A stretch of 64,000 nucleotides of DNA from NCBI GenBank assembly GCA_900547305.1, contig URGH01000002.1, positions 8,829 to 72,828 of the forward strand, in the 5' to 3' direction. How positions within the stretch are numbered: position 1 is the stretch's first letter; every line of letters begins with the position of its first letter. Source of the DNA: an uncultured Oscillospiraceae bacterium. GTDB lineage: Bacteria > Bacillota > Clostridia > Oscillospirales > Acutalibacteraceae. Under the pieces are notes generated by a model. It was not told where the DNA came from. It worked only from the letters and a program-made list of their open reading frames with translations, and searched no databases. Shown piece by piece: positions 1 through 48,304 of this stretch. The position numbers and the translations under genes are program-made.

Positions 1-2144
1 CCGTTTGAGTATGTAACCCGCACAACGCCCTCGGAAAGCACCTTATGCTCGGTAATACAGGCGCCCTCAACCGCTTCCATGGCTTTGGCTGTCTGTTCGT
101 ATACCGAACCGATTTTTTCTTTCCAATCGTCAAAGCAAAGCGAAAAATAATCGCTCATGGCAGTGCCTGTCAGAGAATAATTATCCGCCGCCATAACAAT
201 AAACGAGGGGTACACGCCGTATTCCACCAGCTTTAAAACCGTGCTTTGCGAGCAATAGCCCTGATTTATAAATTCCGAGTAATAATCCACGCTGCCTTTA
301 AGCACCATTTGCAAAAACGGAACGGTGTCGGTTTCAAACTGGTACTGGCTGTTGTTTACGGGAATATTAAAATAATCGTCCGTGTACTGCCAGCAATAAT
401 TATTGGGGTTGTAAAGCGCAACGTTATTATCTGTATTAAGCGCATTTGTAACCGTTTTAAGCGACTGCGTTCTCGTAGAAGCCGCCTTTTTGCTGTAATC
501 GGAATAAAGCGCCGAACCTACGCTGTCATAAGCAAAGCTCCATTCGCCGAATTTGCTCTTTGACAGCTTAAAAACATCGGCTATTCTTGAAATTTTCGCA
601 AAATACTTTGTGGGGTACATCCGGTCCTTATTAGCCGCGGTACGGCTTATAAAGGTCTCGTCTATACCGATCGCCGCGTCTGATGACATATAAATTTGAT
701 TTCCGTTTGCAAGCACCGGATCAAGATACAGATACATTCTCGAACCCATACTGTCCGTTTTATTTTTCAGATTCAAAAGGTTGCCTTTTCCGCCCGTCTG
801 CCGCCCGATTTTCAGCTTTCCGTATTTTGATTTATCGGTAGAGCCGCTCTGCCAGCCCCTGTATACAAGGGTCAGATTGTCAATTCCGTCGCCCGCCAGC
901 GATTCAACGATTTTTAAAGCCTGCCGCGTGGTGGTAAGGGTCTTTACCCTGTTGAAAATAAAGCCCTTTTTCACCGTAGAACCCGCAATTTCCAAACGCA
1001 GAGGCATTTTTTCATCATCCCGCTCCTTACCGAGCGTGCCGTTTTGCAGCAGCTGCTCGCGGTAAAGGTTCGCCATGCCCGAGTAATCGGCGGCAGCGCC
1101 GTTCAAAAAGTAAAAGGTCAGCTTGGGTTCAAGCCTGTTTACATTTTCCTGAACCACGGGTATTCCGCTGCCCGATACCGTCTTGGTATAAAGCTGACGG
1201 TAATTAAACCGAACCGACGCCCAGTTATAATCGGTTACGACCCCAGCGGGAGACGCAGTTACCGAAGCGTATTCCGCGCCCGATTCAACAACCGAAAGAA
1301 AAGCGTTCTGTTCGCTGCCGTGCGCTATACCGAAAACCGGCATTGTAACGGTGTTTGCGTCAACTAAATATTCGTTAATCCTGTTTGCCTGAAGCGTTCC
1401 CGCGGGCGCTAATGAATCAATAGAGCCGTCGACACCGTAAATCTTTTTATCAAAGCCGGTTATATAGCTTGAAGATTTTTTAAAACGCATAAGCGCTCCG
1501 CAGCCGTCGGGAATGAAGATATATCCGTTTATCTCATCCGTATAGCTGCTGCCCAGAAACGGCATAAAGTACAATGCCTTTATTTTTGCGTCGCCGTTTT
1601 CCTGCAGGCTGCCCTTTACCACCTCAAACGATAAAGAGCTGTCGTTAAGCGTTACCCTGAAATCGAAAACTATTCCGAGCTTTTTAGCGTTAAAGGTGCA
1701 TAAAAAGCCGTCGCTTTCCCATTCAAAAAACGATTTTACATCCCTTTCCGAAATGCTCAGGCGCGATTCGGAGCCGTTGGCGTTGTAATATTCAACCGAG
1801 CAGACCGAATTGGCAAAGTTTCTCCAGCCGCTGTTAAGTCCGTTCCCCTTTTCATCGGGAAGAGAACCCCATATATAACCGTTCGCCTTATCTACAATGC
1901 GTATGGAATAAACCGACGGGTTAAACCATATTTCAAGATATTCGCTCTCGCACTTTTTTTCGTAGCCGTCAAGCGACAGTCGGTTTTCCGCCTTAATATT
2001 CTCCGATACCTTTGTATGGCGGTTGGAGCGTATCTCAACAAGGTCAAAGCTGTTTTCGGTTTCCGCCGCCGGTGCGAGCCGTATGCCGCATACCGCGAAT
2101 GAGACCGCAAGCCAAATACTTAATACACGTTTAATGCCCCGCAC
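1..2144 (-). CDS. Large secreted hypothetical protein (possibly carbohydrate-active), 5'-partial: runs off the window start. GTG start at 2144, signal peptide MRGIKRVLSIWLAVSFAVCGIRLAPAAE.
   Basis: Manual reverse-strand translation is open from 2144 to position 1 with no stops. RBS GGGGAGG lies 7 nt upstream of the GTG. The N-terminus is a typical signal peptide. The gene overlaps the stop of the upstream gene by 14 nt. It is missing from the ORF track because it has a GTG start and no stop inside the window. Confidence 0.6.
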   Translation of the reverse strand, partial: MRGIKRVLSIWLAVSFAVCGIRLAPAAETENSFDLVEIRSNRHTKVSENIKAENRLSLDGYEKKCESEYLEIWFNPSVYSIRIVDKANGYIWGSLPDEKGNGLNSGWRNFANSVCSVEYYNANGSESRLSISERDVKSFFEWESDGFLCTFNAKKLGIVFDFRVTLNDSSLSFEVVKGSLQENGDAKIKALYFMPFLGSSYTDEINGYIFIPDGCGALMRFKKSSSYITGFDKKIYGVDGSIDSLAPAGTLQANRINEYLVDANTVTMPVFGIAHGSEQNAFLSVVESGAEYASVTASPAGVVTDYNWASVRFNYRQLYTKTVSGSGIPVVQENVNRLEPKLTFYFLNGAAADYSGMANLYREQLLQNGTLGKERDDEKMPLRLEIAGSTVKKGFIFNRVKTLTTTRQALKIVESLAGDGIDNLTLVYRGWQSGSTDKSKYGKLKIGRQTGGKGNLLNLKNKTDSMGSRMYLYLDPVLANGNQIYMSSDAAIGIDETFISRTAANKDRMYPTKYFAKISRIADVFKLSKSKFGEWSFAYDSVGSALYSDYSKKAASTRTQSLKTVTNALNTDNNVALYNPNNYCWQYTDDYFNIPVNNSQYQFETDTVPFLQMVLKGSVDYYSEFINQGYCSQSTVLKLVEYGVYPSFIVMAADNYSLTGTAMSDYFSLCFDDWKEKIGSVYEQTAKAMEAVEGACITEHKVLSEGVVRVTYSN

Positions 2145-4191
2145 GGTATACGCCCTCCCCGAAAATTTCCTTGATAAACACAACCAGCTGACCGAATAAC
2201 AAATATACAATGCAAACCGCCACAATAACCATAATCATAAAGAAGAAAACAAGAAATATATTCTTCACCGTCTCGCCGAAGCTGTAACGCTGAATATCCT
2301 TAACGCTCATAAAGACAAGGCAGGCAGCCCAGGCTATTACAAACAAACTGCCGAGATTTACAATAAAAGCCTCGTTGAGCGTAAGCCCGTAGCTTAAAAG
2401 CACAATAAACGGAGTAATAATTATATACGGCGCAAACGCATAAGCGGTTGCAACATAAATTTGCTTAAAGCTGCCCTCGCCCTCGTTTATGGTTCCTATC
2501 ATGTAATTTCCCGCAAGCCAAAGCAGCAGCGGAACCCAAAACATTATAAGCACCGAAACGGGGTTTGTTGTGCTGAGCTTCAGCACCCCGAAAAGATACC
2601 CCCTGCCGAGAACATCAAGCAGATACACGCCGAAAAACAGAAAGTATATAACCGTTGCGGTCATAACCGAGCCGTGCTCGCCGCGGCGCAGGTAATAGTA
2701 GCCGTCTATCGGGTGCCTGAGCATGGTTTTAATATACGCCGTTTCCTTTAAAAACCGTTTTGCTCCCGAAACGGGTTTTTCCGCCGCCCTGTTTTTATGC
2801 TTTTTCCGAAAAACGGAACGGATAATAAGCAAAGCTGCTATAAGAATAACGCATAAAAATATATAGCCTATATTACGGTTAAGCCACTCGTTGCGAAGCT
2901 CCCAAAATGCGTCGGAGTAGTATTCGGTGTTATTCGCGATTTTAAAATGCTCCAGCGCCGCTTTGTACTTCTGCTGGTAAAAAAGAGCCTTGCCGTAGCC
3001 CATATGAGCTATCTGCGACATTCCGTTCAGCCTTAAAAGCCCCGCCCATATTTCCTCGCTGCTTTCATAATCGCCCTTGTCAAGCGCCGCTACCGCGCTG
3101 TGGGTAAGGTTTGCAAAGTCGGTCGGGTAAAATACCTGAACCAGCGCCCTATCCTGGTCAAGCACATATAAAATTCCGCTTTCGTCGTCAACATCTATCG
3201 CAACCGCGTTGGTAAAAATTCCGTTGCGGTCGTCGTCATAAGCGCGCCCGCCGAAAGTGAACACAAGATTTCCCTGGCTGTCGTACTCGTTTATAATTCC
3301 CGTTTGGGTCACCGCAAAAACATTTCCGTATGGTCCCGCCGCCACATCGGTAAAATTCCATTCCTCTTTCATTTTGCCGCTTTCGGCAAATATGTTAAGC
3401 CCCGCCATGTTGTGCATTTTAAGGGTATCGTCCGATGTGGAGGCATATGTTATGCCCTGCATGTCGTCGCTTCTGGTAACGCTGAATATCAAGTCTTTCT
3501 GCGAAACGTCAATGTTATTTACCGGGCGCGGGGTGCGCACCATAAGCGTTTCCTTTTGCCTTGCGTTGTAAATAAGCTCCTGAAAACGCTCGGTCATGGT
3601 CATTTTGTATTTATTTGCGGCAAAGTACCCGAAAAATTTGCCCTTTGAGTTAAACTGCATAATTCCCTCGTAGGCGCCGTCACCCACAACAAAAATGTTC
3701 CCGACAGAGGAAACTGCAACCGCGCAGGGGGAATAAAGACTTGTTTTGCTGAACAAATAGCTTTCAGGTCTGCCTATTGTCATTTTAAGCCTATGCGAAG
3801 CGTCGTACACAAAAACCGCCTGCGCCTGCGGGTCGGCTGCGTAAACCGTTCCGTCGTCCGTAACAAAAAGTCCGTCGGGCGCTATAAGCTCATCGCCGCC
3901 GAAAAATTCGGTTTCGGAGCTTGCAATATCGTAAACCGCAATGCGGGCGTTGCCGCTGTCGGATATATACAGCTTTCCGTTTTTATAAAAAACATCGCCC
4001 GGCTGCGAAAGTCCCGTTCCCTTTGCGTATACCGCCGCTGGTATATAAGCGTCCTGGGTTTTTACCCACTCGCCGTCAACCGAAACCGTGTAGGTGTATG
4101 TGGTGTTATCGGAAGCATATACGTTAAAACCGCCCGAAATAACGGCGAGAACCGCCGAAATAACACAAAGGCGTTTCAGTATTTTGCGCAT
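2131..4191 (-). CDS. Membrane protein: signal peptide, NHL-repeat beta-propeller ectodomain, TPR-like segment, C-terminal Yip1-like multi-TM domain.
   Basis: 686-aa ORF with GGAGG RBS. Repeated DG..YV.D and NHL-like blades. The C-terminal 250 aa has 5-6 hydrophobic helices resembling Yip1/DUF1282. Confidence 0.6.
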   Translation of the reverse strand: MRKILKRLCVISAVLAVISGGFNVYASDNTTYTYTVSVDGEWVKTQDAYIPAAVYAKGTGLSQPGDVFYKNGKLYISDSGNARIAVYDIASSETEFFGGDELIAPDGLFVTDDGTVYAADPQAQAVFVYDASHRLKMTIGRPESYLFSKTSLYSPCAVAVSSVGNIFVVGDGAYEGIMQFNSKGKFFGYFAANKYKMTMTERFQELIYNARQKETLMVRTPRPVNNIDVSQKDLIFSVTRSDDMQGITYASTSDDTLKMHNMAGLNIFAESGKMKEEWNFTDVAAGPYGNVFAVTQTGIINEYDSQGNLVFTFGGRAYDDDRNGIFTNAVAIDVDDESGILYVLDQDRALVQVFYPTDFANLTHSAVAALDKGDYESSEEIWAGLLRLNGMSQIAHMGYGKALFYQQKYKAALEHFKIANNTEYYSDAFWELRNEWLNRNIGYIFLCVILIAALLIIRSVFRKKHKNRAAEKPVSGAKRFLKETAYIKTMLRHPIDGYYYLRRGEHGSVMTATVIYFLFFGVYLLDVLGRGYLFGVLKLSTTNPVSVLIMFWVPLLLWLAGNYMIGTINEGEGSFKQIYVATAYAFAPYIIITPFIVLLSYGLTLNEAFIVNLGSLFVIAWAACLVFMSVKDIQRYSFGETVKNIFLVFFFMIMVIVAVCIVYLLFGQLVVFIKEIFGEGVYRAGH

Positions 4192-4202
4192 TTATATACC
4201 TC

Positions 4203-5093
4203 CTACTTAATTCCGGAATGCATCATGGTATTCATAACACGGGACTGCATAATAATAAAAATAATCAAATTCGGCAAAAACAGTATAAGCGTTGCGGCGG
4301 CAGCCATACCCACGCCCGCAATTCCGCCCGCCGAGCCCGTAAGCGAGCTTATGTAAAACGGAAAGGTTTTCAGCGCCTCGTTATCTATATAAAGGGTTGA
4401 AGCCTCGGTTGCGCCCCATGCCGCCTGAAATGTGGTAATAGCCACGGTTGCAATTGCCGGGTTTACAAGCGGGAATACTATTTTCCGAATAATCGTATAG
4501 TCGGTAGCCCCGTCGATTACGGCTGCCTCTATAAGCGCGTCGGGCATTTGGTCTATATTCTGCTTTATAAGAAAAACGCCGGTTGGAGCCACAAGAAGAG
4601 GAATAATGTTGGAGAAGAAATTATCCTGAAGCCCCGTATAAATAATTACAAAATATCTTGGAATGGCAACCGCGGCGGACGCGAACATCATACCGAGGGT
4701 GTTTATTGTAAAGAGCAGCTTTTTACTTCTGAAATTCTTTTTTGAAAGCACATAGCCCGTGCAAACCGAAATAACCACCGTTAAAATAACGACCGCGGCG
4801 GTTGAAATTACGCTGTTAAACAAATACCTTGCCGCGGGCACGTCGGTATCGGCCGCCATTGCGAAAAGATCGCTGAAATTCTCCCATGTAGGGTTTTTAA
4901 CGTAAAATCTCGGCGGGTATGCAAACAGCTCGTCAATCGGTTTAAAGGCGTTAAAGAAGATAAAAACCAGCGGAAGAGCCATAACAAAGCATATGGGAGC
5001 CAAAATCAGAATGAATTTTATCTGACTGCGCGAAAAATGCTCGGGATTGATTCCGCCCGATTGGAGCGCGGTCTTCTTTTTTCGTTTTGACAT
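4203..5093 (-). CDS. Carbohydrate ABC transporter permease (MalG/LplC-like)
   Basis: 296 aa with 6 TM segments. EAA-loop motif IDGATDYTIIRKIVFPL. Confidence 0.9.
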   Translation of the reverse strand: MSKRKKKTALQSGGINPEHFSRSQIKFILILAPICFVMALPLVFIFFNAFKPIDELFAYPPRFYVKNPTWENFSDLFAMAADTDVPAARYLFNSVISTAAVVILTVVISVCTGYVLSKKNFRSKKLLFTINTLGMMFASAAVAIPRYFVIIYTGLQDNFFSNIIPLLVAPTGVFLIKQNIDQMPDALIEAAVIDGATDYTIIRKIVFPLVNPAIATVAITTFQAAWGATEASTLYIDNEALKTFPFYISSLTGSAGGIAGVGMAAAATLILFLPNLIIFIIMQSRVMNTMMHSGIK

Positions 5094-5117
5094 AATCTAT
5101 CCACACTTCCTTTCGGG

Positions 5118-6008
5118 TCAGTCATCGCTCGAAAACAGCTTTTTGGCACCCTCGGACATTGCGTATACAAATATGAGCATAACAACCGAAATTGCCGCCG
5201 AATAACCCATTTCGTACCTCAGAAATCCAAAGTCCTCAATATGCGTGCCTATGAGCTGACCGGAGTAGTTGGGGGTCGGGTTTGCGCCCGAAAGGGTCGT
5301 TCCCACGCCGCCCGCCTGAAACGTGCCAACTATTGCCATGATGGCGCCGAAAAGCATTTGCGGCTTTGCAAGCGGAATGGTTATATAAATAATTTCCTGA
5401 AAACGGTTTTTAATTCCGTCAATATAACCCGCTTCGTACAGCTCGGTATTACCGTTGGTAATACCCGAAAGCATTGCAAGAAAGCCTATGCCCATGCTGC
5501 TCCAAAGGGTTACTATTATCATAATCGGCAATAAATATTTATCCGATTGAGCCCAGGCGACCGGCTGCTCTATAAAGCCGAGCTTTAAAAGCAGAGCGTT
5601 TAAGTAGCCGCTCTTATCGCCGTTGAATATTACCGTCCAAATAGTCGCAAGCATAACGCCGCCCGTCATTGAGGGCGCATAGATTATAATTGTTAAAAAC
5701 GTTCTTACAGGCCGCGTAAGCTGCGCCAGCATCCATGCAAGCAAAAAGGAAAGTATGTATCCCCCGATACCCGTAAATACGGCGTACACTACGGTGTTTG
5801 GCAAAACCTTTTGCATGAAAACCGAATCGTTGGTAAAAAGTGAAATATAGTTTTTCGCGCCTACAAAATCGGGGAACTGAATTGTGTTAAAATCGGTAAA
5901 GGAAAGCGCGATAGCCGCAACCGTGGGAAGAATTATAAACAGTACAAACAACAGCGCATAAGGAAAAAGCAAAACGAATACCGAATGTTTGTTTAAAAAT
6001 TTCTTCAT
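5118..6008 (-). CDS. Carbohydrate ABC transporter permease (MalF/LplB-like)
   Basis: 296 aa multi-TM. LplB-like N-terminus. RBS GGGGGAG before ATG. Confidence 0.9.
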   Translation of the reverse strand: MKKFLNKHSVFVLLFPYALLFVLFIILPTVAAIALSFTDFNTIQFPDFVGAKNYISLFTNDSVFMQKVLPNTVVYAVFTGIGGYILSFLLAWMLAQLTRPVRTFLTIIIYAPSMTGGVMLATIWTVIFNGDKSGYLNALLLKLGFIEQPVAWAQSDKYLLPIMIIVTLWSSMGIGFLAMLSGITNGNTELYEAGYIDGIKNRFQEIIYITIPLAKPQMLFGAIMAIVGTFQAGGVGTTLSGANPTPNYSGQLIGTHIEDFGFLRYEMGYSAAISVVMLIFVYAMSEGAKKLFSSDD

Positions 6009-8890
6009 TGCTTCTCCCCCTCGCTTTTCAGCAGCTTTACAAGGTCTGCGTATGTCATTACCGAATATTCCTTAACCGGGTTTCCCTGCGAATCGCAGAA
6101 GCCGAATTCCTGCATTTTACGCTTTATTTCGCGGTTGGAAAGTATCGCGGCGGAGTCTATGGACTCAACAAGCCCCTTTCCGTTTACAACAACATTGTTC
6201 CAAATGTTGCTTGTTTCCCGCTGAACCATATAAGAGGCGGCGTGCGGCGCGATTTCCTTTTGCGCTTCCCACTGGTTAAGAATTACCTGCTTGTGCTTTT
6301 CGGAATACGGCAGACTTTTAAACGCAACCAAATTTGCCGTGTTCCAGCGGTATTCGTTTCCGAGCGAGCTTTGCAGCAGCGTAGCGTAGCTTAGCTGAGT
6401 TTCCGAGGAAAGCCACCATTTCAAAAAGCTGTACGCCTCGTCGGGTTTATCGGTATCTTCAAGTATCATGCAGGCGGTTGAGTCCGCTATTTGGTACCTG
6501 AGCACCGAGCCGTCTGCCTGTTTTTCACCAGGCACCAAAGCCACATCCCAGTTTTCCGCAAGCTCGGGCGCTGCCAGTTCAAGCTGCAAATATGTTGAAA
6601 AGCCGCTTATTCCCAGCGGAATTTCACCGTAACGGAAGCTGTTGTAAAAATTCGCAACCGAATTTGAAACGCTGTAAATATTGTAAATATCGGTCATCTG
6701 CTCAAACGCGGTAACGGCGTTAAGCGAATCAAAAGCGACTTTCATCCCGTCCTTTTCGTAAAAATCGGCGTTGTGCTGATAAAGGAAAGGTCCCGTTACC
6801 GCCATTGATTTCATAGCGCCCGACGCCGAAAGCGGAAGATAAAAGTTCATATTGTACCGCAGCAAAAGCGGCATTAATGCCTTTACGTCGTCCCATGTTT
6901 CGGGAACATCCAGCCCCAGCGTATTAAGAATATCCTTTCTGTAATAAAGAATATTGAAATCCTGCGATTCGGTAGCGCCGTAAACCCCGTTTCCGTAGCA
7001 CATGGGCACCAGCGCTTCAAGATTGTACTCTTTATTGTAGAAATCCAGGAAACCGTCGTATTCAAGAAGATTTTTTGCCGCGCCCCTTATTGCAAGATTA
7101 AACGGCGTGCCGTAGCCCACGCCCAGCACTACGTCGGGATTGGTGCCTGCCGCGTTCGCAAGAACGAGCTTTTGCTCCCCTGTCATTACCGAAATTTCAA
7201 TATTTGTTCCGTGTTCGGAATTGTATTTTTCGTCTACCAGCTGCTGCAGGGTCTGAACATAGGGTATGGAGCTTTGCATCCACACCTTAAGCTCGCTGCT
7301 TTTTTTGTTTTCGGTTTTATTACCGAACGATTTAATAAAGCGCTTGAGCCCCTCTGTAAGCGATGTCCAAAATGTGACCCTCGCGGGCGGAAGCTCCGTT
7401 TCGCCGCCTATGTAAATTCTGTCAAGCGCAACCGACTGGTTAACCATTTTTCCTATTACGGTTCCGAGGTACTTGCTCACCGAGCTGTCGCCCATGCTTA
7501 TATCGGCGGCCTTATTCGGAATAGTGCGCGAATCCTTTGCTATTTTTTCAAGAAGCCCCGCGGCATATAAAAGGTCGTTCGCCCACACAGGCTCCTTGCC
7601 GCCGAGCTTTGCAAGCTCCTTATAAAACGCGTTCGCGCGCTCCGCATAGGATTTAAGGTCGGAAACCGCGTCAGGGAAATACGCCTCGGTATCCCATGTG
7701 CGGTTTTTATCAACCGAGGATGACGCCAGCTTATTTATATCCATGCCGAACCGATTTACGTCTTCCATAAGCGCGAGTATTCCGCTGTATATCTCCGCTA
7801 AGGGACCCATTGTAACGCACAGAGAAACAGTGTGGCTGCCCGCTTTCAGATAAATATAAGCGGGCTTGCCGTCTGCCTTTAATGTGAAATTTGAATATGT
7901 ATTTGACTTTGTTTGCGGGAACTCTATGCCGTTCATTTCCTCAAACAGCGCCTTGCCGTCTATTTCCATATTCCTGTAAACCGGCATATTCGTAGACGCG
8001 TTTTGCTTATACCTGAACGAAACGGCGTAAAGTCCGTCGCTCGGCGCCTCAAATTCCCAAACCGCCTTTTGCCCTACGCTCGACCAATCCTCGGAAAGAA
8101 TGTTTATGCGGCTGCAGTAGGTTTCGTAAGGATAAAGCGCCGCGTTTTTGACAGACGCGCCGCGTACCGACGAATCGTTTTTCACTGCGTAGCGCTCACC
8201 CTCTACCGCTATCGGTTCGGCGTAAAATTTTCCCTTTACTGACTCACTGTACTGCGCATAAGACGGCAAAGCACGCGGCTTGGCAATATAAAAGGCTCTG
8301 ACGTATATACTCTGAACATTGTTTTTAACCGTTACCCTGTGCCGCCCCGCTTCAAGCTCCAAAGAAATTGCAGAGCGGTTTAAATCGGTATAATTTTCAA
8401 AAGCGGCAATAACCCACTCCTCTATCGGCGTTTGGGCTGCCGGCAGCTCGTTTCCGTCGCGGTCCAGCGCGTACTGTTCCTCTTTATCCCTGCGCAAAAC
8501 GGGCAGCAGACTCGTAAAATCTTCTCCGTCAACCGTAAGCGCAAACAGGCTGTTGGTCATTTTATCGTCGGTAATCTTATATTCGCAGGCAATTTGGTAT
8601 GTACCCTTTTCTTCCGCTGTAAACTCAAAGGTCAGGGCGTCGTTTTCCTTAAAAAGAAAGTCACTGCTGCCCGCTGTGCCGTTAAGGGCGACATTTTCCG
8701 AAGAAACCGAAATACCGCTTTTAAAGTTTTCGGAATCGCTGTAATTTTTAACCGCCAATCCCGAATAGCTTGTCGGTCTTTTCAGCGTTTTATCGGTATT
8801 AACCGCCTTTGCCGAGGGCGTTACGGCGCAAACAGCCGCCAAAACCGACGCCAACACAGCCGAAACGGCGCTTTTAAAATGCCTGACCAT
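6005..8890 (-). CDS. Extracellular solute-binding protein (family 1, LplA-like) fused to an N-terminal ~400-aa tandem beta-sandwich (CBM-like) duplication
   Basis: 961 aa. Signal peptide. Two internally similar ~150-aa modules (FEFTAEEKGTYQIACEYK...AGRHRVTV and WEFEAPSDGLYAVSFRYK...AGSHTVSL). They are followed by a ~550-aa SBP_bac_1-like region. GGAGG RBS. Confidence 0.8.
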   Translation of the reverse strand: MVRHFKSAVSAVLASVLAAVCAVTPSAKAVNTDKTLKRPTSYSGLAVKNYSDSENFKSGISVSSENVALNGTAGSSDFLFKENDALTFEFTAEEKGTYQIACEYKITDDKMTNSLFALTVDGEDFTSLLPVLRRDKEEQYALDRDGNELPAAQTPIEEWVIAAFENYTDLNRSAISLELEAGRHRVTVKNNVQSIYVRAFYIAKPRALPSYAQYSESVKGKFYAEPIAVEGERYAVKNDSSVRGASVKNAALYPYETYCSRINILSEDWSSVGQKAVWEFEAPSDGLYAVSFRYKQNASTNMPVYRNMEIDGKALFEEMNGIEFPQTKSNTYSNFTLKADGKPAYIYLKAGSHTVSLCVTMGPLAEIYSGILALMEDVNRFGMDINKLASSSVDKNRTWDTEAYFPDAVSDLKSYAERANAFYKELAKLGGKEPVWANDLLYAAGLLEKIAKDSRTIPNKAADISMGDSSVSKYLGTVIGKMVNQSVALDRIYIGGETELPPARVTFWTSLTEGLKRFIKSFGNKTENKKSSELKVWMQSSIPYVQTLQQLVDEKYNSEHGTNIEISVMTGEQKLVLANAAGTNPDVVLGVGYGTPFNLAIRGAAKNLLEYDGFLDFYNKEYNLEALVPMCYGNGVYGATESQDFNILYYRKDILNTLGLDVPETWDDVKALMPLLLRYNMNFYLPLSASGAMKSMAVTGPFLYQHNADFYEKDGMKVAFDSLNAVTAFEQMTDIYNIYSVSNSVANFYNSFRYGEIPLGISGFSTYLQLELAAPELAENWDVALVPGEKQADGSVLRYQIADSTACMILEDTDKPDEAYSFLKWWLSSETQLSYATLLQSSLGNEYRWNTANLVAFKSLPYSEKHKQVILNQWEAQKEIAPHAASYMVQRETSNIWNNVVVNGKGLVESIDSAAILSNREIKRKMQEFGFCDSQGNPVKEYSVMTYADLVKLLKSEGEKQ

Positions 8891-8934
8891 ATTTCATCCT
8901 CCAATTCAAGCCTTTAAAATACGTCCGGCAAAAC

Positions 8935-9020
8935 ATGACAGCGAAATTTTCCCTCTCATGCTTTGCCCGGCGGGCGTTTCTCGCACCTCGGGTGCGGGAA
9001 ACGCCGCTTTTAAGGCGTGT
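8935..9020 (-). promoter_or_regulatory. Strong GC-rich stem-loop between the two solute-binding-protein genes. Possible partial terminator or mRNA-stabilising hairpin.
   Basis: GGCGTTTCTCGCAC/GTGCGGGAAACGCC inverted repeat with a single mismatch. Confidence 0.3.
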
Positions 9021-9023
9021 TAT

Positions 9024-10574
9024 TTACTTGTGCTTTGCTTTCCATTCCTTTTGAACGTTAGCCAGCTTTTTATCGAAATCATCCCAATAAACCTTTAATG
9101 CCTTGGTAGCCTTTGCTTCAAGATCCTTAGCGGAAGAATCGGGGTCCTTAGTGCCGTCCTGAACCTTCATGGAAACAACGTTTATAACGTCCGCCCACAT
9201 CTGTCCGAAAGAGGGATAAATCTTATCGGGGTCGCCGCGGAAGCAGTTGGATATGTTGTTATACATGTACAGCTGCACCTCGTCGTCCGCAAACAGCTTT
9301 TTCGCCGCCGACACCACATCCGGGTGTGTGGTAACGGGGGTATAATAATCGAGATTGAGCTTATAGCTGCTCTTGCCCTTTGCCTTGTCGGTATAGGCGT
9401 TCAGTCTTGCCTTGTTGCCCTCGGAGCTGTATGTCATAAAGCTCAATACCTTAAACGCCTCGTCGGGCACCTTTGTATCGGCAAGCATAAACGCGTGGTC
9501 TATATGAATAGGCATACGCCCCTTTATCGCCTGCGGATACGGGTGGAAAGTCCACTTGCAGTTTTTAAGCAGGGTTTCATAATATTCCTTTGAGTATGTA
9601 CCCTTTTCAAAGTCCATCATAACGGTTCTGCCGAGCTTTGTTGCCGCCCATTCATCGTCCGAACCGAAACGGCTTACATATTTATTTGCAAGGCGGAGAC
9701 TGTAACCTTCAACATTCGGTGTTTGTCTCAGCTTTCTGAACAGAGTCCATGCTTTGGCAAGCGAGCCAGTCATTTCAAAGGAACGGGTATCCGCGTTGTA
9801 TCCGCAGATTCCTACATTCTTCTGATACGCTCCCGCCATATAATAATCAAGGTAAAACAGTCTTTCGCAGAAAGAATATTTATCGTTTGAGGTGGCAGTC
9901 GCAAATTTTGTCATATCGTCGGGCGTCCAGTCAAGCGCCGGAACGTCAACGTTCATCGCGTCCAAAGCGTCCAGATTTAAGGCAACGCAGGTAAAATACG
10001 CCTGGTGCGGCAAAGCGTAAACCTCACCGCCGTATGTATAGTCTTTCATTATATTCGACGGAACGTATTTATACTCGGGGTCTGCTTTCACATATGAGGT
10101 AATCGGGTATACAAGTCCCTGACCTATAAACAGCGGAAGATTCGCAATATCGTCGAAAACTATATCCGGCAACTGACCCGAGGTTGATTTTGCGGCGATA
10201 TATTCCTGCGAGTTGGGCGCGCTGTAATGGTCTACCTGAACCTTTATATTCGGGTATTTTTTTGCAAGCGCGTCAAAAAGCGGCGCCGTGTCGGTCGGTC
10301 TTTGAGAAGAAATCGCAACCTTAACCGTTGTTTTGCCGTTTGCAGTGCTGCCTTTCCCGCCCGAGGTGCTGCCGCCCGCGGTGTTGCCCTTACTGCCCGA
10401 CGCGGTCGTATCCTTATCGGAAGTGCTGCCGCCCGACGTTTTGCTCCCGGAAATCACAACGTCATCGCTCAGATAATAGCTGTATGACTTAGGATTTTTG
10501 CGGCATCCGCCCACGGTCACCAAAGAAAAAACCGCCAACACAACAGCCGTTAAACGAATACTGACTTTTTTCAT
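9024..10574 (-). CDS. ABC transporter solute-binding lipoprotein with Gly/Ser/Thr-rich linker
   Basis: 516 aa. Lipobox LVTVGGC. Low-complexity GS-rich linker, then an SBP fold. Confidence 0.8.
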   Translation of the reverse strand: MKKVSIRLTAVVLAVFSLVTVGGCRKNPKSYSYYLSDDVVISGSKTSGGSTSDKDTTASGSKGNTAGGSTSGGKGSTANGKTTVKVAISSQRPTDTAPLFDALAKKYPNIKVQVDHYSAPNSQEYIAAKSTSGQLPDIVFDDIANLPLFIGQGLVYPITSYVKADPEYKYVPSNIMKDYTYGGEVYALPHQAYFTCVALNLDALDAMNVDVPALDWTPDDMTKFATATSNDKYSFCERLFYLDYYMAGAYQKNVGICGYNADTRSFEMTGSLAKAWTLFRKLRQTPNVEGYSLRLANKYVSRFGSDDEWAATKLGRTVMMDFEKGTYSKEYYETLLKNCKWTFHPYPQAIKGRMPIHIDHAFMLADTKVPDEAFKVLSFMTYSSEGNKARLNAYTDKAKGKSSYKLNLDYYTPVTTHPDVVSAAKKLFADDEVQLYMYNNISNCFRGDPDKIYPSFGQMWADVINVVSMKVQDGTKDPDSSAKDLEAKATKALKVYWDDFDKKLANVQKEWKAKHK

Positions 10575-10575
10575 G

Positions 10576-13500
10576 TTAAGAACTCCTTTTCTGAATTTTA
10601 TCGGAACGTTTTTTCAAACGCAGCGAAACGAGCAATGCCACCGCCGCAAGACCGGTAATAACCGCGGCGGCAAAAAGCGGGAAACGGTCGCCGGTGCGTG
10701 GCTCATAGCGCCCGCCGCCGTTTTCTCCCTTTCCGAAGAGCCACCCGTACTTGCCGTTCGGATTTTTTCCGTAATCAACGCCGATTATTTCCGCCCGACT
10801 TCCGTCGTCCTCTTCCTCGCCTATCAGCGGGTCGTTGGGTTCGAACGTATCGGGCAGGTTATCGTGCTCCTCAAGGGTGATAACGTTTCCATCGTAATCA
10901 AGCGTTGTTATGCTTAAATTATCGTACATAGCCATATTCTTATTGCTCATAAAGCCTATGTAACCGCCCGTGTAGCCCTCTCGCAAAGCGCACTCGTGAA
11001 CCTCTGTTCCGTCAATTTCAAGTACCGCTTTGAGCTTTGTAACCGTCAGCGTCATATGGTGCATTTGGGAATCCCATGTCCGTGCGTAATCCTTGAATTC
11101 AGAGGCGGAAACCGATTCGCCGTAGCTGTTGGTATCGCGCACAAGCTGTCCTCTGAAACGCGCGCTGCCCTCCATTGTGAGGTATGCCGCGGCTCCGCCG
11201 CCGTTGTAGGTCAGATAGGTATCGGGGTCCTCTATTCCGAAAACCACCATTGCCTGACCCCAGGTATTTGCGCCCTGACGGAAATCAACATCAAGCCTGA
11301 AATTCCTGAATGTGCGCCCGGTATAAATCAAAGACTCTATTTCGTCATGGTCGCCCACGTTTCCTGCCGAGTCCTTACGCCTTATGGCGCCGCCGTCCAT
11401 ATAATATACGGAATCTATCGTGGTTCTTATATAATCCTCCGCTTTTGGGTTCGGGGAATACATATTTACCCAATTCTTATTAAAATCGCTCAATGCGTCT
11501 ATAAAGAACTTAACCGTTGTTGAAATGTTATAATCAACCGTTACCGTAACCTTAACGCTTGCGGCTATTCCGTCGGGGTTGATAAGGGTTTTGTTTACAG
11601 GAAGAACCGGTGTTCCCTTAAAGGTAAAGGTGCCGGGGTAGCTCGGTATGTAATCGTCGCTCGACCATTCTATCTTCCGTGTAACCGTTTCGCCCTTATC
11701 TGTGGTAACTTTCAGCGTTTCGGGCAAATTCAAAAGATTTGTGTTGCTGTTTTCTGCGGTTCTTTCCCACTTGATATCGTTAACCTTTTCTATCGAAACA
11801 ATTTTGCTCTGCTTTTCGGGGTCAATTTCCATTTTATCGTAATCGGTCACGGAGAAGTTATCGAAGTAGGAACCGGCGCTTATGCCGTTCACCATGGAAA
11901 TAAAGCCATCAACGCTTCCTACGTCTATATTGCTTAAAACCTCTGTTCCGTTTATCGTAACGCTCGCCTTACCTCCGATAACCGCAAGCTCGATTTTAAA
12001 CTCAAAATTGTTCGCCTCATGGTTAAACACCGCCTTACCCGCGCAGTCATGAATATACCAATCGTCAAAATTCACCTTTACGTCGGCGGCGCTTCCGAGA
12101 TATACAGCAGTCGCCGTTTCAGATTCGTTTCTGAATCCCAGCGTAAAGCCGCCGTTGCTCTTCATTCCCTTACCCTGCTCGCCGACGGTTATTGCATTGT
12201 AACTCGTGCCCCACATAGGCATATACGCGTCAACTGTAAGGTAAAAATCCCTGAATTTCTGGTTCTTGTAGGTATAATAAGCCATGTGCCAATACGGGCG
12301 GTTGCCGTTCTCCCACGGATTTTTTTCGGTGCCCGCGTCAAAAACTCTTTCAAGCCTGTTTTTGTTGAGATTAATATATTTCGACGGGTCGTTTGTTATA
12401 TCCGTAAGTGAATTTTCAGCCGTTTCGCCCGTATCGTAGTAGAAATTGAAGTCGCGGGTTATAAGACTGCTGTCACCGCTGCTGTTGAAATTGGTGGAAT
12501 ATCTGCCGTTTTCCTCGGTTCTCTCAAACGGAGCTTCTTTCACGGTATTTATAAACGAAAAGTTATCAAACGCCCCCTGCCAGTCAGCGGCAAGATTGTA
12601 ACCGAGCGTTACCGACGCATAATATGCCGCAGCTTCAAGTCCGCTTTTTTCAAGCGCCTTTTCTCCGTCTATATAAGCGGCGGCGGTGCCGTTTTCAAAT
12701 GTTATCTTTACATTTACTGTTTTTTCCTTACTTGTAACAGCCCCGTGCGCGGCGGTACTATCCTGCTTTATATAGAAGAAGTCCAAATCCTGCCGTGCCT
12801 CGGCGGCGTTTCCGAGGAATAAATCGTATTTCTTTTCAAACGCGTTGTACTTCATGGCAAGGGTAAAGCCCGAGGCGTATATTGTGCCCTCGGTATCGGG
12901 CGCGAAGTGCAGCATTTCAAAGCCGTCGTGCGTGCTTGTTAAATCAACCGAAAACTCAAAATTCTTGAAGCTTTGGTTTTTGTAGTAAAAATACAGCTGC
13001 TGCCAGTAGGGTCTTCTGCCGTCCGTCTCTGTTTCCGAGGGGGCGTTCGTCCTCACAATGCGCCCGCCCGAAACGGCGGCATATGCGGCAAGCTCGGACA
13101 TATTAAGCTCTTTCGGAGAACTTGATACCCAATTTTCATGGTCGTAGCGTACTGTAAAGTCATTTCCGAGAGCATTGGAAAGACTATCGGCGTCAAGGTT
13201 ATTTGTATATTTTCCGTCCTCCTCGGTGCGCTCGAATGCAGCCTTAACGCTTTTAATTTTAAAATTATCAACAGCGCCTTGCCAATCTTCCGCCAGGTTA
13301 TAACCAAGCGTTACCGCAGGATAATAGTCGGCAGTTTCAAGTCCGCTTTTTTCAAGCACTCTTTCGCCGTCTATATAAGCGGTAGCGGTACCGTTATAAA
13401 ATACTATTTTAACGTTTACGGTTTTTTCCTTCCCGGTAACAGTCGCGTGCGCGGCGGTACTTTCCTGCTTTACATAGAAGAAATCCAAATCCTGCCGCGC

Positions 13501-14022
13501 CTCTCCCGCGTCTCCTAAGAATAAATCGTATTTCTTTTCAAACGCGTTGTACTTCATGGCAAGGGTAAAGCCCGAAGAATATATTGTGCCGTCGGTAGCA
13601 GGGGCAAAGTGCAGCATTTCAAAGCCGTCGTGCGTGTTTGTTAAATCAAGCGAAAGCTCAAAGTTTTTAAAGCTCTGATTTTTATAATATAAATACACCT
13701 GCTGCCAATAAGGCCGCCTGCTGTCGTTGGGATTCTCCGACGGGGCGTTTATCCTGGTCAGCCTGCCGTCAGTCAGCGCGAGATATTTCCCCGCCTCGGC
13801 GACCGACAGCTTTTCCGGAGTGGCGGAAACCCAATTTTCATTATCATATCGGATTTCAAAATCGTTTCCGAGCGCCGCCGCCAAATCCGCGGCGTCAAAG
13901 TCGTTTTCGTAAACGCCGTCGCTTTCGGATCTCGCCGCCATTGCGAACTGAGAAACCGGTAACGCGCAAATCAGCAATATAAGCGCCAAAAGTGAAGCTG
14001 TTATTCTGTCTCTCTTTTTCAT
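10576..14022 (-). CDS. Giant C-terminally membrane-anchored surface protein with four LamG/DUF1080-like jelly-roll modules and an Ig-like domain
   Basis: True start is the ATG at 14022 (RBS GGGAGG), not the TTG at 14055. Signal peptide. Modules end with DUF1080-like G.IG....Y.N(F/L)S(I/F) motifs. C-terminal acidic linker plus a single TM helix and KKRSDKIQKRSS tail. Confidence 0.8.
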   Translation of the reverse strand: MKKRDRITASLLALILLICALPVSQFAMAARSESDGVYENDFDAADLAAALGNDFEIRYDNENWVSATPEKLSVAEAGKYLALTDGRLTRINAPSENPNDSRRPYWQQVYLYYKNQSFKNFELSLDLTNTHDGFEMLHFAPATDGTIYSSGFTLAMKYNAFEKKYDLFLGDAGEARQDLDFFYVKQESTAAHATVTGKEKTVNVKIVFYNGTATAYIDGERVLEKSGLETADYYPAVTLGYNLAEDWQGAVDNFKIKSVKAAFERTEEDGKYTNNLDADSLSNALGNDFTVRYDHENWVSSSPKELNMSELAAYAAVSGGRIVRTNAPSETETDGRRPYWQQLYFYYKNQSFKNFEFSVDLTSTHDGFEMLHFAPDTEGTIYASGFTLAMKYNAFEKKYDLFLGNAAEARQDLDFFYIKQDSTAAHGAVTSKEKTVNVKITFENGTAAAYIDGEKALEKSGLEAAAYYASVTLGYNLAADWQGAFDNFSFINTVKEAPFERTEENGRYSTNFNSSGDSSLITRDFNFYYDTGETAENSLTDITNDPSKYINLNKNRLERVFDAGTEKNPWENGNRPYWHMAYYTYKNQKFRDFYLTVDAYMPMWGTSYNAITVGEQGKGMKSNGGFTLGFRNESETATAVYLGSAADVKVNFDDWYIHDCAGKAVFNHEANNFEFKIELAVIGGKASVTINGTEVLSNIDVGSVDGFISMVNGISAGSYFDNFSVTDYDKMEIDPEKQSKIVSIEKVNDIKWERTAENSNTNLLNLPETLKVTTDKGETVTRKIEWSSDDYIPSYPGTFTFKGTPVLPVNKTLINPDGIAASVKVTVTVDYNISTTVKFFIDALSDFNKNWVNMYSPNPKAEDYIRTTIDSVYYMDGGAIRRKDSAGNVGDHDEIESLIYTGRTFRNFRLDVDFRQGANTWGQAMVVFGIEDPDTYLTYNGGGAAAYLTMEGSARFRGQLVRDTNSYGESVSASEFKDYARTWDSQMHHMTLTVTKLKAVLEIDGTEVHECALREGYTGGYIGFMSNKNMAMYDNLSITTLDYDGNVITLEEHDNLPDTFEPNDPLIGEEEDDGSRAEIIGVDYGKNPNGKYGWLFGKGENGGGRYEPRTGDRFPLFAAAVITGLAAVALLVSLRLKKRSDKIQKRSS
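12540..13908 (-). repeat. Intragenic tandem duplication of ~690 bp (two ~230-aa modules, near-identical at the DNA level)
   Basis: Long identical strings recur about 698 bp apart, for example cttttcaaacgcgttgtacttcatggcaagggtaaagcccga at ~12833 and ~13531. Confidence 0.7.
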
Positions 14023-14081
14023 CGTAATCCTCCCGATTAATAAATTGTTTTTCAAATGCCGCCGTACATGCCGCGCCGATT

Positions 14082-15362
14082 TTAAATTACTTTCTTTTCA
14101 ACGCAGCGCTCCGCAAATTCGCAGAAAAGCGCGTCGGACCATGTAAAGAACTCGCGTTTAAACTTTTTCGGGTCGTCGGGATCAAAGCACTCGTGCATAT
14201 ATCCGGTATCCGCGTCGGCTGAAATCAGCGTGTCAAGCACATTCCGCATTTCTTCCGCGTCCTCCGAGGTCAGCCCCTGCATCGAAAGCCCCATGTGCCA
14301 TATATATCCTGTGTATTCATGCGGGGATCCGAGCCCGCTCGCAAAGCTGCCCTTGTAGTAATATGGGTTATCGTCGCTTAAAATAAACCTGCGGGTGTTT
14401 TTATAAACCTCGTCAAGCTCGGCTGTGTTGAAGCCTATATACGGCAAAGATAAAAGACTCGGTGTGTTTGCGTCGTCCATAAACTCGTAATTCCCCAGCC
14501 CGTCGGTTTCATAGGCGAAAATTTTACCGTATTTTTCATGCTCTGTAATACCGTATTTTTTAACCCCGTCAAGTATTTCCTGCCGCAGCCTTTCCGCTCT
14601 TTCGGCAACTTCGGGCGCGCAGTTTTTTAAAAGCTCGCTTACATAGCCGAGAACCACATAAGCAAAAATATTCCCGGGAATGTTGTAGCCGTAGCTTACC
14701 GCGTCATCGGACGGTCTGAAACCCTGCCACGTCATTCCGGTATATCCTACCGGCTCGCCCATTCCGTTATTGTGCAGCGTATCGTTATACCTATCTGTTT
14801 CCCTCGAAAACCTGTATTCCGATTTTTCAAAATGGTGCTGCTCGGTTTCCAAAACATCAAGTACGGTTTTCACGGTGCCCGGCAGAACCTCCTCTATAAA
14901 CGCTCCGTCGCCCGTTACCTTATAATATTTGTAAATCAGCCGCAGCGGATATGAAAGCGAATCAAGCTCGTATTTTCTTTCCCAAACCCAAGGCGATTTG
15001 CGGGGAATATCCTCTGTGTGTCCCCTGTCGCTCGGCTGCTCGTTGAAGGCATTCGCATACGGATCTACCGCTATATATGAAAACTGCTTTTTTATAACGC
15101 TGCGAATAAGCCCGCCGATTTCGGGGTCATTTGCAAAACAGACGTAATTCCAAAGCTGCGCCGAGGAGTCTCTCAGCCACATGGCGGGAATATCGCCCGA
15201 AACCAAATAATCGCTGAGCGTTCCGTCCTCTCTGCGGGAAAACGCGTCAAATGTATGTAAATAGCAGTTTCTGTAAAGCCTTGCCAGCTTCGGAGAATAC
15301 TCTTTCATCACACTCTCGTATTTTTCTAAATGCTCTTTTATCATCGGGCAAATGTCCATGTC
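14082..15362 (-). CDS. GH125-family exo-alpha-1,6-mannosidase-like protein (DUF1237)
   Basis: WLRDS motif (PAMWLRDSSAQLWNYV). Size is ~427 aa from the ATG at 15362, which has an AAGGAG RBS. The supplied ORF is extended into the 5'UTR. Confidence 0.7.
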   Translation of the reverse strand, partial: DMDICPMIKEHLEKYESVMKEYSPKLARLYRNCYLHTFDAFSRREDGTLSDYLVSGDIPAMWLRDSSAQLWNYVCFANDPEIGGLIRSVIKKQFSYIAVDPYANAFNEQPSDRGHTEDIPRKSPWVWERKYELDSLSYPLRLIYKYYKVTGDGAFIEEVLPGTVKTVLDVLETEQHHFEKSEYRFSRETDRYNDTLHNNGMGEPVGYTGMTWQGFRPSDDAVSYGYNIPGNIFAYVVLGYVSELLKNCAPEVAERAERLRQEILDGVKKYGITEHEKYGKIFAYETDGLGNYEFMDDANTPSLLSLPYIGFNTAELDEVYKNTRRFILSDDNPYYYKGSFASGLGSPHEYTGYIWHMGLSMQGLTSEDAEEMRNVLDTLISADADTGYMHECFDPDDPKKFKREFFTWSDALFCEFAERCVEKKVI

Positions 15363-15409
15363 TTTTCTCCTTACGTTTTCAATTGCTGACAAATATTTTT
15401 TACCGTCCG

Positions 15410-15551
15410 TTTTAGTGAAACGGTTAATGGCGCATTTTATTATATTCAAAAAAATATAAATGTTACTTTTAGTGATTTTTATTATATCATGTGTTTTAAA
15501 GTTTGTAAAGTACTTTTTTTAAATTAGTTAATCTTAATCGTTTCACTAAAA
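15410..15551. promoter_or_regulatory. Pair of 18-bp inverted repeats (TTTTAGTGAAACGGTTAA / TTAATCGTTTCACTAAAA) bracketing the GH125 promoter. Candidate operator.
   Basis: 17/18 bases are complementary. One copy lies at about -50 and the other at about +55 relative to the predicted -10. Confidence 0.35.
15481..15509 (-). promoter_or_regulatory. Sigma-A-type promoter for the GH125 operon (TTTACA-17-TATAAT on the minus strand)
   Basis: Minus-strand -35 TTTACA and -10 TATAAT separated by a 17-nt spacer. Confidence 0.4.
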
Positions 15552-15593
15552 TTGTTTTATAAAATCCGGTTTGATTTCAGGAAGTTTACAGCA

Positions 15594-15623
15594 TAAAAAA
15601 GCCTCCCCGATGTTTGGGGAGGC
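15594..15623 (-). terminator. Rho-independent terminator of mscL
   Basis: GCCTCCCC-loop-GGGGAGGC followed by a U-run on the minus strand. Confidence 0.6.
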
Positions 15624-15641
15624 TCAGTCTGATTGTATCGT

Positions 15642-46129: not shown

Positions 46130-46139
46130 AGCTTTGCAA

Positions 46140-46279
46140 TTTAGGGAGCTTGATGAAACTCAGGCTGAGAGGAAGTCCGCTTTTCGCTATGACTTCGACC
46201 TATGACCTGATACGGATAATGCCGTCGTAGGGAAATACGCTAACAGTATTGCCGCAGGTCTTTGCCTGCGGCTTTTTTC
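46140..46279 (+). promoter_or_regulatory. TPP (THI-box) riboswitch with intrinsic terminator (46251..46279)
   Basis: CTGAGA...GACCTGATACGGATAATGCCGTCGTAGGGAA THI-box. CCGCAGG-tctttg-CCTGCGG plus a U-run. Confidence 0.8.
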
Positions 46280-48228: not shown

Positions 48229-48304
48229 TGGAGCTGAAGATGGGACTCGAACCCACGATCTGCTGATTACGAATCAGCTGCTCTGCCAACTGAGCCACTT
48301 CAGC
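48229..48304 (-). tRNA. tRNA-Thr (anticodon CGU) with encoded CCA
   Basis: Cloverleaf folds: 7-bp acceptor, D-arm GCTC/GAGC, anticodon loop TTCGTAA, T-loop TTCGAGT. Flanked by minus-strand promoter TTGACT-17-TATAAT (48318..48346) and terminator (48197..48226). Confidence 0.85.

Follow-up and report, generated by a model that had tools for sequence, protein, structure and literature searches.

Gram-positive polysaccharide utilization loci (gpPULs) of Roseburia and Eubacterium rectale bring together co-localized glycosidases, a CUT1 importer with lipoprotein solute-binding proteins (SBPs), a LacI- or AraC-type regulator, and surface binders, with the ATPase encoded elsewhere (Sheridan et al. 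2016, PMC5320581). The same features are found in a locus that begins in a 64-kb stretch of contig URGH01000002.1 from an uncultured Oscillospiraceae bacterium (the window, in whose numbering positions are given). In contrast to the gpPULs of Roseburia and E. rectale, however, the present locus contains two pairs of permeases, a binding protein of 961 aa (SBP2) with two β-sandwiches and a helical bundle, a protein that combines NHL, TPR, and Yip1 domains, and a DUF5696 protein. The cycloalternan locus of Listeria monocytogenes (PDB 5f7u, 5f7v) is similar in having an extracellular multidomain glycoside hydrolase family 31 (GH31) protein, cytoplasmic GH31 proteins, and an ABC importer. For each of the three GH31 proteins of the present locus, Lmo2446 ranks first or second among solved enzymes, and the smaller binding protein (SBP1) has Lmo0181 among its matches; the Listeria system is not known to include GH125, LamG proteins, Yip1, or DUF5696. 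Like SpGH125 and CpGH125, the GH125 encoded here has no signal peptide and carries the catalytic Asp and Glu. In Streptococcus pneumoniae, the neighbors of GH125 are the N-glycan enzymes GH92, GH38, GH20, and GH29, whereas its partners here are three GH31 proteins, one GH3, and a GH129-like protein. We consider it probable (roughly 60%) that the region flagged at the outset belongs, as its promoter-proximal part, to a 16-gene, ~33-kb, LacI-equipped gpPUL of an uncultured gut Clostridia species, working by the mechanism proposed below.

The initial annotation described positions 4203-15551 as a regulator-less glycan utilization locus of six genes. All six open reading frames (ORFs) are confirmed, on the minus strand like every gene of the locus. 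Two more co-directional genes, absent from that annotation in the case of the first, lie in the window beyond position 4203 and encode the NHL/TPR/Yip1 protein and then the DUF5696 protein, which is cut at base 1. Spacing is tight, with a gap of 11 bp between the second permease gene (P2) and the Yip1 gene, an overlap of 14 nt between Yip1 and DUF5696, and an overlap of 4 nt between the SBP2 stop and the start of the first permease gene (P1). The window holds genes 1 to 8 alone, which run along one strand in the order GH125, a wall-anchored protein with four LamG modules, SBP1, SBP2, P1, P2, NHL/TPR/Yip1, and DUF5696. Genes 9 to 16 continue on the same strand in conspecific metagenomic contigs retrieved via exact-protein look-ups: L001 (13.8 kb at 98.7% nucleotide identity to the window) and L010/L011 (a 2.46-kb overlap with the window at 98.7% identity) together place permeases P3 and P4, GH31a, GH31b, a dockerin protein with two LamG modules (LamG661), a LacI-family regulator, a dockerin-bearing LamG-GH31 protein (GH31c), and a GH3 (770 aa). 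In these contigs, a convergent SpoIID gene comes after GH3. Upstream, the window consists of 48 kb of housekeeping genes (MscL, an RlmL-like methyltransferase, RelA/SpoT, RecJ, Rnf, tRNA synthetases, and LepA). Scanning a genome collection with GH31b led to just three loci, none of them from the source species, one of which (L002, 67% identity) confirmed the synteny. NCBIfam gave no name to any non-permease protein of the locus.

A gpPUL comprises a transporter and a transcriptional regulator together with one or more enzymes that degrade glycans. Enzymes and transport are co-localized here, with GH125, the SBPs, and permeases in the window and the three GH31 proteins and GH3 in the conspecific contigs. 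An SBP is accompanied by MalF-like and MalG-like permeases, the composition of a CUT1 importer. The regulator is provided by the LacI-family gene in L010/L011, outside the window itself. Because this gene lies ~9.7 kb past base 1 of the window, the absence of a regulator in the initial annotation is an edge artifact, true inside the window only.

The operon promoter (Table 1) is the top sigma-70-like site within 17 kb and sits after a strong terminator. A 16-mer, TTAGTGAAACGRTTAA, has exactly two copies in the window, mutually inverted and bracketing this promoter, and exact matches to the pattern TKWAACGRTTAA occur in the 64 kb only at the distal copy and at 15416-15427. The pattern is also matched exactly, twice and again in inverted orientation (TTAAACGATTAA and TTTAACGGTTAA), in the GH125/LamG intergenic region of L012, a locus from related Clostridia whose surface protein has only 39% identity to that of the window; neither the window nor 14 other fetched loci contain a further exact match. 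The core TTAAnCGnTTAA is a CG-centered pseudo-palindrome of the LacI type, clearer in L012, and the sites within window positions 15400-15560 carry TGAAACGRTTAA. As judged from the sequence, this CG-centered pair flanking the promoter is a candidate operator. A cre-type site or a classical 14-bp LacI palindrome at the promoter was considered and rejected, the sites being merely pseudo-palindromic. Neither a riboswitch nor a leader RNA was found when the locus was scanned with Rfam.

Table 1. Features of the locus and of the remainder of the window. Positions refer to the window unless a conspecific contig is named; operator sites are candidates.
Feature	Position	Strand	Description
mscL intrinsic terminator, 5' locus boundary	15599..15625	-	10-bp stem, 7 GC pairs, T-run
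Candidate operator, distal copy	15534..15549	-	TTAGTGAAACGATTAA (core TGAAACGATTAA); ~25-40 bp upstream of -35
Operon promoter	15481..15509	-	TTTACA, 17 nt, TG-n-TATAAT; 11/12 matches, extended -10
Candidate operator, proximal inverted copy	15412..15427	+	TTAGTGAAACGGTTAA; 5' leader, between -10 and GH125 start
GH125 exo-α-1,6-mannosidase homolog	14082..15359	-	425 aa, no signal peptide (cytoplasmic)
Surface protein	10576..14022	-	1148 aa; signal peptide, four ConA/LamG-like modules, Big_4, sorting signal
Surface protein, module m1	13231-13938	-	
Surface protein, module m2	12541-13230	-	
Surface protein, module m3	11821-12540	-	
Surface protein, Big_4 region	11506-11820	-	Between m3 and m4
Surface protein, module m4	10831-11505	-	
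Surface protein, sorting signal	10579-10704	-	EPRTGD, transmembrane segment, basic tail
SBP1	9024..10574	-	516-aa lipoprotein, lipobox VGGC, Ser/Gly/Thr-rich linker; divergent family-1 sugar SBP
SBP2	6005..8890	-	961 aa, signal peptide; Pfam SBP_bac_1 at aa 545-832
SBP2, β-sandwiches	8276-8713, 7811-8218	-	
SBP2, helical bundle	7442-7801	-	
SBP2, MalE-like domain	6008-7429	-	
Permease P1 (MalF/GlcT-like)	5118..6008	-	BPD_transp_1, NCBIfam
Permease P2 (MalG/UgpE-like)	4203..5093	-	BPD_transp_1, NCBIfam
NHL/TPR/Yip1 membrane protein	2131..4191	-	686 aa, signal peptide
NHL β-propeller	3112-4104	-	Extracellular
TPR	2872-3096	-	
Transmembrane segment and Yip1	2134-2850	-	Multi-pass
DUF5696 protein	1..2144	-	Signal peptide; PF18952 E = 3e-153; 714/743 aa visible, cut by window edge
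DUF5696 protein, full length			743 aa (conspecific contigs)
GH31a			765 aa, no signal peptide (conspecific contigs)
GH31b			1024 aa, F5/8-type C domain (conspecific contigs)
LamG661	L010/L011 10001-11986		661 aa, two m1/m2-type LamG modules and dockerin
LacI-family regulator	L010/L011 12133..13146		337 aa, PF00356 and Peripla_BP; own promoter-like site
GH31c	L010/L011 13256-17560		1434 aa, secreted; N-terminal LamG module and dockerin
Thiamine pyrophosphate (TPP) riboswitch	46132-46250	+	RF00059, 59.6 bits
tRNA gene	48232-48304	-	RF00005, 70.6 bits

We propose that the LacI-family protein represses the promoter at 15509..15481 via the two bracketing CG-centered sites and that an imported oligosaccharide would relieve this repression. 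Extracellular glycan could be held at the surface by two LamG proteins, one sortase-anchored and built of repeats and the other dockerin-bearing, while the dockerin-bearing GH31c and the GH129-like DUF5696 protein would cut it, the latter probably working beside the NHL/TPR/Yip1 membrane scaffold. SBP1 and SBP2 would pass the fragments to two CUT1-type permease pairs, energized by an MsmK-type ATPase from another part of the genome. Breakdown may then be completed in the cytoplasm by GH125 (as an α-1,6-mannosidase), GH31a, and GH3. The dockerins on GH31c and LamG661 imply a cohesin-bearing scaffold in the source organism.

Several observations weigh against this interpretation. The LacI gene and genes 9 to 16 lie outside the window and are placed from same-species metagenomic contigs at 98.7% identity. 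The operator pattern was built from the same four sites that it matches, is at background level when two mismatches are allowed (about one match per kb), and has no exact copy upstream of LacI, LamG661, or GH31c. The window contains no ORF with the ATPase motif LSGGQ, no ATPase is found in the extended locus, and no ORF in the window carries the sortase motif TLxTC. The DUF5696 barrel lacks a strictly conserved acid pair (D549 is D or E in just 74% of 212 sequences), so that catalysis by this protein can only be inferred. Lastly, the substrate cannot be read from the GH31 proteins, because these are remote matches with mixed specificities. Importers of Firmicutes usually share an ATPase whose gene lies at another site, and this is presumably the case here too.

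The two binding proteins and two permeases reported for the flagged interval are present as described (SBP_bac_1, BPD_transp_1). The accompanying view of one ABC transporter with two binding proteins, however, does not hold for the full locus. P1 and P3 are MalF-like paralogs and P2 and P4 MalG-like ones, so that the two SBPs are matched by two complete permease pairs of the MalF/MalG type. SBP1 has no Pfam match; a phmmer search of the PDB aligned it to family-1 SBPs (22hh, E = 6.5e-10; Lmo0181, E = 2.6e-5), and its orthologs match SBP_bac_1/8. The AlphaFold2 (AF2) model of SBP2 (pLDDT 86) matches oligosaccharide SBPs in Foldseek (E = 6.6e-22). The 133-bp spacer between the two SBP genes (8891-9023) contains GC-rich hairpins, e.g., ACGCC..GGCGT followed by TTTCCC, which could act as an mRNA stabilizer or as a partial terminator raising SBP1 over the downstream genes. 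In a conspecific contig of the Logan collection (L005, 96.7%), SBP2 is called as two genes (3254-6140; 534 and 424 aa) and P2 is shortened to 259 aa (7163-7942), which could reflect strain-level pseudogenization or an assembly error.

The NHL/TPR/Yip1 protein matches Yip1 (E = 4.6e-12), NHL, SGL, and TPR_16 in Pfam, and its propeller is similar to Pizza/PknD sensor propellers. A Yip1-family membrane protein serves as an accessory subunit of an ABC transporter in YknWXYZ of Bacillus subtilis. The present system is alike in encoding a bacterial Yip1-domain membrane protein with an ABC transporter; in contrast, YknWXYZ is an exporter of another ABC class and is not known to have an NHL/TPR ectodomain or a glycosidase-like partner. 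The DUF5696 protein was modeled with AF2 through a 98%-identical full-length protein (pLDDT 90.4, pTM 0.90), in which a (β/α)8 barrel stands between N- and C-terminal β-sandwiches. Foldseek supports a GH129-like fold for this model (E = 2e-34, TM-scores of 0.65/0.73), followed by GH101 and GH36, all of them α-glycosidases. In a sequence profile search, GH129 chains also rank first, at a marginal E value of 1e-4 over local stretches (NagBb, E = 0.1). Identity to NagBb from Bifidobacterium bifidum (5wzn) and to the 3,6-anhydro-D-galactosidase ZgGH129 (5opq, 8rzk) is 12-15%; the three-domain fold is common to both sides, but sequence falls short of GH129 membership. On the strength of its model, the DUF5696 protein is thus GH129-like by fold and no GH129 member by sequence. 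NagBb is a cytoplasmic exo-enzyme, whereas the DUF5696 protein, unlike the GH129 enzymes, is secreted and has the genes for a Yip1 membrane protein and for ABC permeases as fixed syntenic neighbors. The possibility of a hidden GH31 was tried and rejected, as profile alignment to GH31a with hhalign gave a probability of 1.6% and no homology.

An exhaustive profile search places the DUF5696 family at 5,073 clusters (50% identity, E ≤ 1e-10), and neither DUF5696 nor PF18952 is mentioned in any paper of the searchable literature. Some members among P0308, P0309, P0322, P0341, and P0349 have N-terminal extensions of 200-400 aa with no Pfam match, and one has a weak CBM_4_9. Across 212 sequences, the conserved acids are D213 (100% D/E, in a PDG motif of the N-terminal domain), D239, D606 (91%), and E/D641 (98%), and the barrel candidates D549, E604/D606, and E641 are acidic in 74-98%, a choice made from conservation alone and not from superposition. 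An alternative hypothesis is that the protein is catalytically dead and serves as a glycan receptor or docking platform for P3/P4, a pair that lacks a binding protein of its own wherever a cassette is without SBP1. There is no invariant acid pair in the barrel, D549 being replaced by N, S, or T in ~17% of the 212 sequences, the most conserved motifs sit in the N-terminal β-sandwich, and P3/P4 always follow DUF5696, even in cassettes without a small SBP. Against this, the full three-domain glycosidase architecture is kept at high model confidence, D213, D606, and E/D641 are 91-100% conserved, and one family member has a weak CBM_4_9 match, a frequent feature of enzymes. We regard the loss of catalysis as unlikely, although it is the best surviving of the alternatives, and favor an enzymatic role for DUF5696.

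Both proteins belong to a cassette that recurs in other lineages in the order large SBP (~960-996 aa), two permeases, NHL/TPR/Yip1, DUF5696, and two further permeases. Twelve single look-ups, as opposed to a large survey, form the basis for this conservation, and the cassette was seen in L002, L006, L007, L008, L009, L012, L013, L014, and L015. At least seven versions are clearly distinct and stand beside differing glycosidases and regulators, with DUF5696 homologs at 23-73% identity. The stop of Yip1 overlaps the start of DUF5696 in most loci looked up (L001, L005-L010, L015). In related Clostridia (L002, L006, L012) the flanks are similar to those of the window locus; a metagenomic version (L007) is flanked by GH31, GH78, and GH3, and one from Ca. 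Epulonipiscium (L008) by GH16. A Spirochaetales metagenome-assembled genome (L009) combines the cassette with a ROK regulator and GH26 and encodes NHL/TPR and Yip1 as separate genes, and a JGI metagenome (L015) has GH66, GH13, and a hybrid kinase with a response regulator. The versions in an NCBI genome assembly (L013) and a Logan read-archive assembly (L014) are the most divergent: they have a split NHL/Yip1, no small SBP, no glycosidases, and two ATPase genes of their own (~232 and 313 aa; L013 1071-2846, L014 1189-2848) directly upstream of the large SBP, and their downstream permeases are enlarged to 374-423 aa. In Paenibacillus sp. LMG 31456 (L016, WHOD01000102.1), a 990-aa large SBP is accompanied by a MalK-type ATPase and two permeases, without Yip1 or DUF5696, among GH95, an apiosidase-like protein (PF13204), BNR, and AraC, in what looks like a pectin or rhamnogalacturonan II (RG-II)-type locus. 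Since Paenibacillus has the importer alone, the large-SBP importer is separable from the NHL/Yip1-DUF5696-P3P4 part.

We tentatively suggest, as an idea that is possible but has the odds against it, that the cassette is an unrecognized, widespread glycan capture and import machine of monoderms and spirochetes. In such a machine, DUF5696, as a secreted enzyme of a new α-glycosidase family, would be held at the membrane by the Yip1-anchored propeller and would pass its products straight to a dedicated permease pair, beside a second importer with a giant SBP bearing carbohydrate-binding modules. The cassette could instead serve turnover of the cell's own envelope or matrix glycans, or sensing, with the flanking glycosidases mere neighbors. 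The cassettes of L013 and L014, which have their own two ATPases and no nearby glycosidase or sugar regulator, fit such a role, as do the similarity of the NHL propeller to the PknD sensor domain and the fact that accessory enzymes are wholly different between lineages. Most contexts, however, are catabolic glycosidases with sugar-type regulators (LacI, ROK, hybrid kinase with response regulator), the permeases are of the CUT1 sugar-importer type, and the SBP2 fold is MalE-like and oligosaccharide-binding. This makes a role other than nutrient harvest rather improbable, and harvest of an external glycan remains our preferred reading of the cassette.

For the surface protein, the description as four LamG/DUF1080-like modules stands as far as the four-module build is concerned. 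Sequence identity is 73% between modules m1 and m2 and 24-27% between m3 and this pair (E ~1e-18), and m4 is weakly related to m3 (E = 0.008). The DUF1080 label rests on one PF06439 match of the whole protein (41.7 bits; gathering score 26.8), whose best stretch lies in m4, while isolated modules score below the cut-off (m1, 16.4 bits; m4, 22.3 bits; m3, no match) and match the lectin domains Laminin_G_3, TS_C, and GH59_C about as well. A sequence search of the PDB with the protein returned spurious picornavirus VP4 matches only. Its C terminus has the build of a sortase-type sorting signal, with EPRTGD, a hydrophobic stretch (F..L), and RLKKRSDK, and the ortholog P0165 (39% identity) ends in PAKTGD, a transmembrane segment, and KKQSK; the motif is a PxTG variant, non-canonical compared to LPXTG. 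The m1/m2-type module is lineage-restricted, given that just 18 homologs were found among 5.8 billion proteins. Repeat number differs between conspecific strains, with 1148 aa here and 1384 aa in P0161 (L001 1-3616), which has one more m1/m2-type module. Modules of this type are also appended to GH31c, SGNH esterases, and dockerin proteins. In P0164, P0171, and P0172, the signal peptide and m1/m2-type modules of LamG661 are fused to an SGNH/GDSL esterase domain, which suggests module shuffling among the secreted proteins of the lineage.

Characterized DUF1080 enzymes such as BT2157 act on 3-keto sugars supplied by adjacent Gfo/Idh/MocA dehydrogenases (PMC8121099; bioRxiv 10.1101/2024.03.25.586180). 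The initial annotation had connected the modules here to this chemistry, and it is conceivable that they are catalytic, of the BT2157-type 3-keto-glycoside lyase/hydratase kind, and that they make the surface protein an enzyme instead of a binder. The whole-protein score above the PF06439 gathering score and the proven 3-keto-glycoside activity of DUF1080 proteins speak for this, but no module alone passes the cut-off, and lectin families match about equally. Moreover, none of the 16 locus genes encodes a Gfo/Idh/MocA 3-dehydrogenase or a sugar-phosphate-isomerase-like lyase as a partner, and the modules are extracellular, arranged in tandem with varying copy number, and shared with GH31, SGNH esterase, and dockerin proteins. 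The 3-keto-glycoside link is weak on these grounds and a catalytic surface protein very improbable. Because the modules are extracellular and appended to GH31, SGNH esterases, and dockerins, they behave like binding modules, and a predicted carbohydrate-binding role is the better-supported reading.

The GH125 assignment is genuine. The protein matches PF06824 over profile positions 2-412 of 414 (E = 1e-139, 466 bits, cut-off 23.4) and aligns end to end with the solved CpGH125 and SpGH125 (PDB 2nvp/3qt3/5m7i/3qpf; E ~1e-116 to 1e-131). Its RPSDDA and GYMHE motifs align to D220 and E393 of 2nvp, conserving the catalytic Asp and Glu, which are reported to be the general acid and the general base of CpGH125, respectively (Gregg et al. 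2011). The start codon is the ATG at 15359, preceded by AAGGAG and corresponding to M31 of a longer TTG ORF. GH125 is predicted from its sequence to be an α-1,6-mannosidase acting in the cytoplasm. It also adjoins the surface-protein gene in L012, although on the opposite strand (divergent), and this conserved linkage supports a real α-1,6-mannosyl step. The cycloalternan-forming enzyme, the α-xylosidase YicI, and the GH31 dextranase FjDex31A are all at about the same distance (E ~1e-56 to 1e-62) from the three GH31 proteins; because the similarity to the Listeria enzyme is this remote and is equaled by YicI and FjDex31A, its specificity is not transferable. With three GH31 proteins, one GH3, and a GH129-like protein in the rest of the locus, α-1,6-mannoside can account for no more than one of the linkages in the substrate, probably an α-linked glycan in which an α-1,6-mannosyl bond occurs. 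The proposed α-1,6-mannoside foraging thus survives as a glycan utilization locus, but not with a mannoside as the whole substrate. Elsewhere, the position of the L015 cassette beside GH66 and GH13 suggests an α-glucan. That the six genes form a self-contained α-mannoside/N-glycan locus, with no dedicated regulator and one ABC transporter for two binding proteins, is hardly credible: GH125 is authentic and no regulator gene lies in 4203..15551 or among the housekeeping genes of the 48 kb upstream, but the window continues with two more co-transcribed genes, the conspecific contigs add two permeases, three GH31 proteins, GH3, and LacI, and the mannan/N-glycan families GH38, GH92, GH76, and GH18/85 are missing among the called locus genes.

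With the regulator located in the conspecific contigs, the puzzle of its absence is gone, and with it a false lead. The DUF5696 protein is a strong candidate for a new glycoside hydrolase family, predicted to be related to GH129, GH101, and GH36. The cassette, of seven to eight genes, spans Clostridia, Epulonipiscium, and Spirochaetales, with Yip1 fixed beside ABC sugar permeases, whether fused with NHL/TPR or separate. This hints that the Yip1 protein is a new class of accessory subunit for importers, and the searchable literature holds no relevant paper that ties the Yip1 domain to sugar permeases and polysaccharides. If the cassette is indeed a glycan capture and import machine, it would be a functional counterpart of the Sus "utilisome" of Bacteroidota. 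Gut Firmicutes process much of the dietary and host glycan, by uptake machinery that is far less understood than the Sus of Bacteroidota, and the cassette offers an entry point to it.

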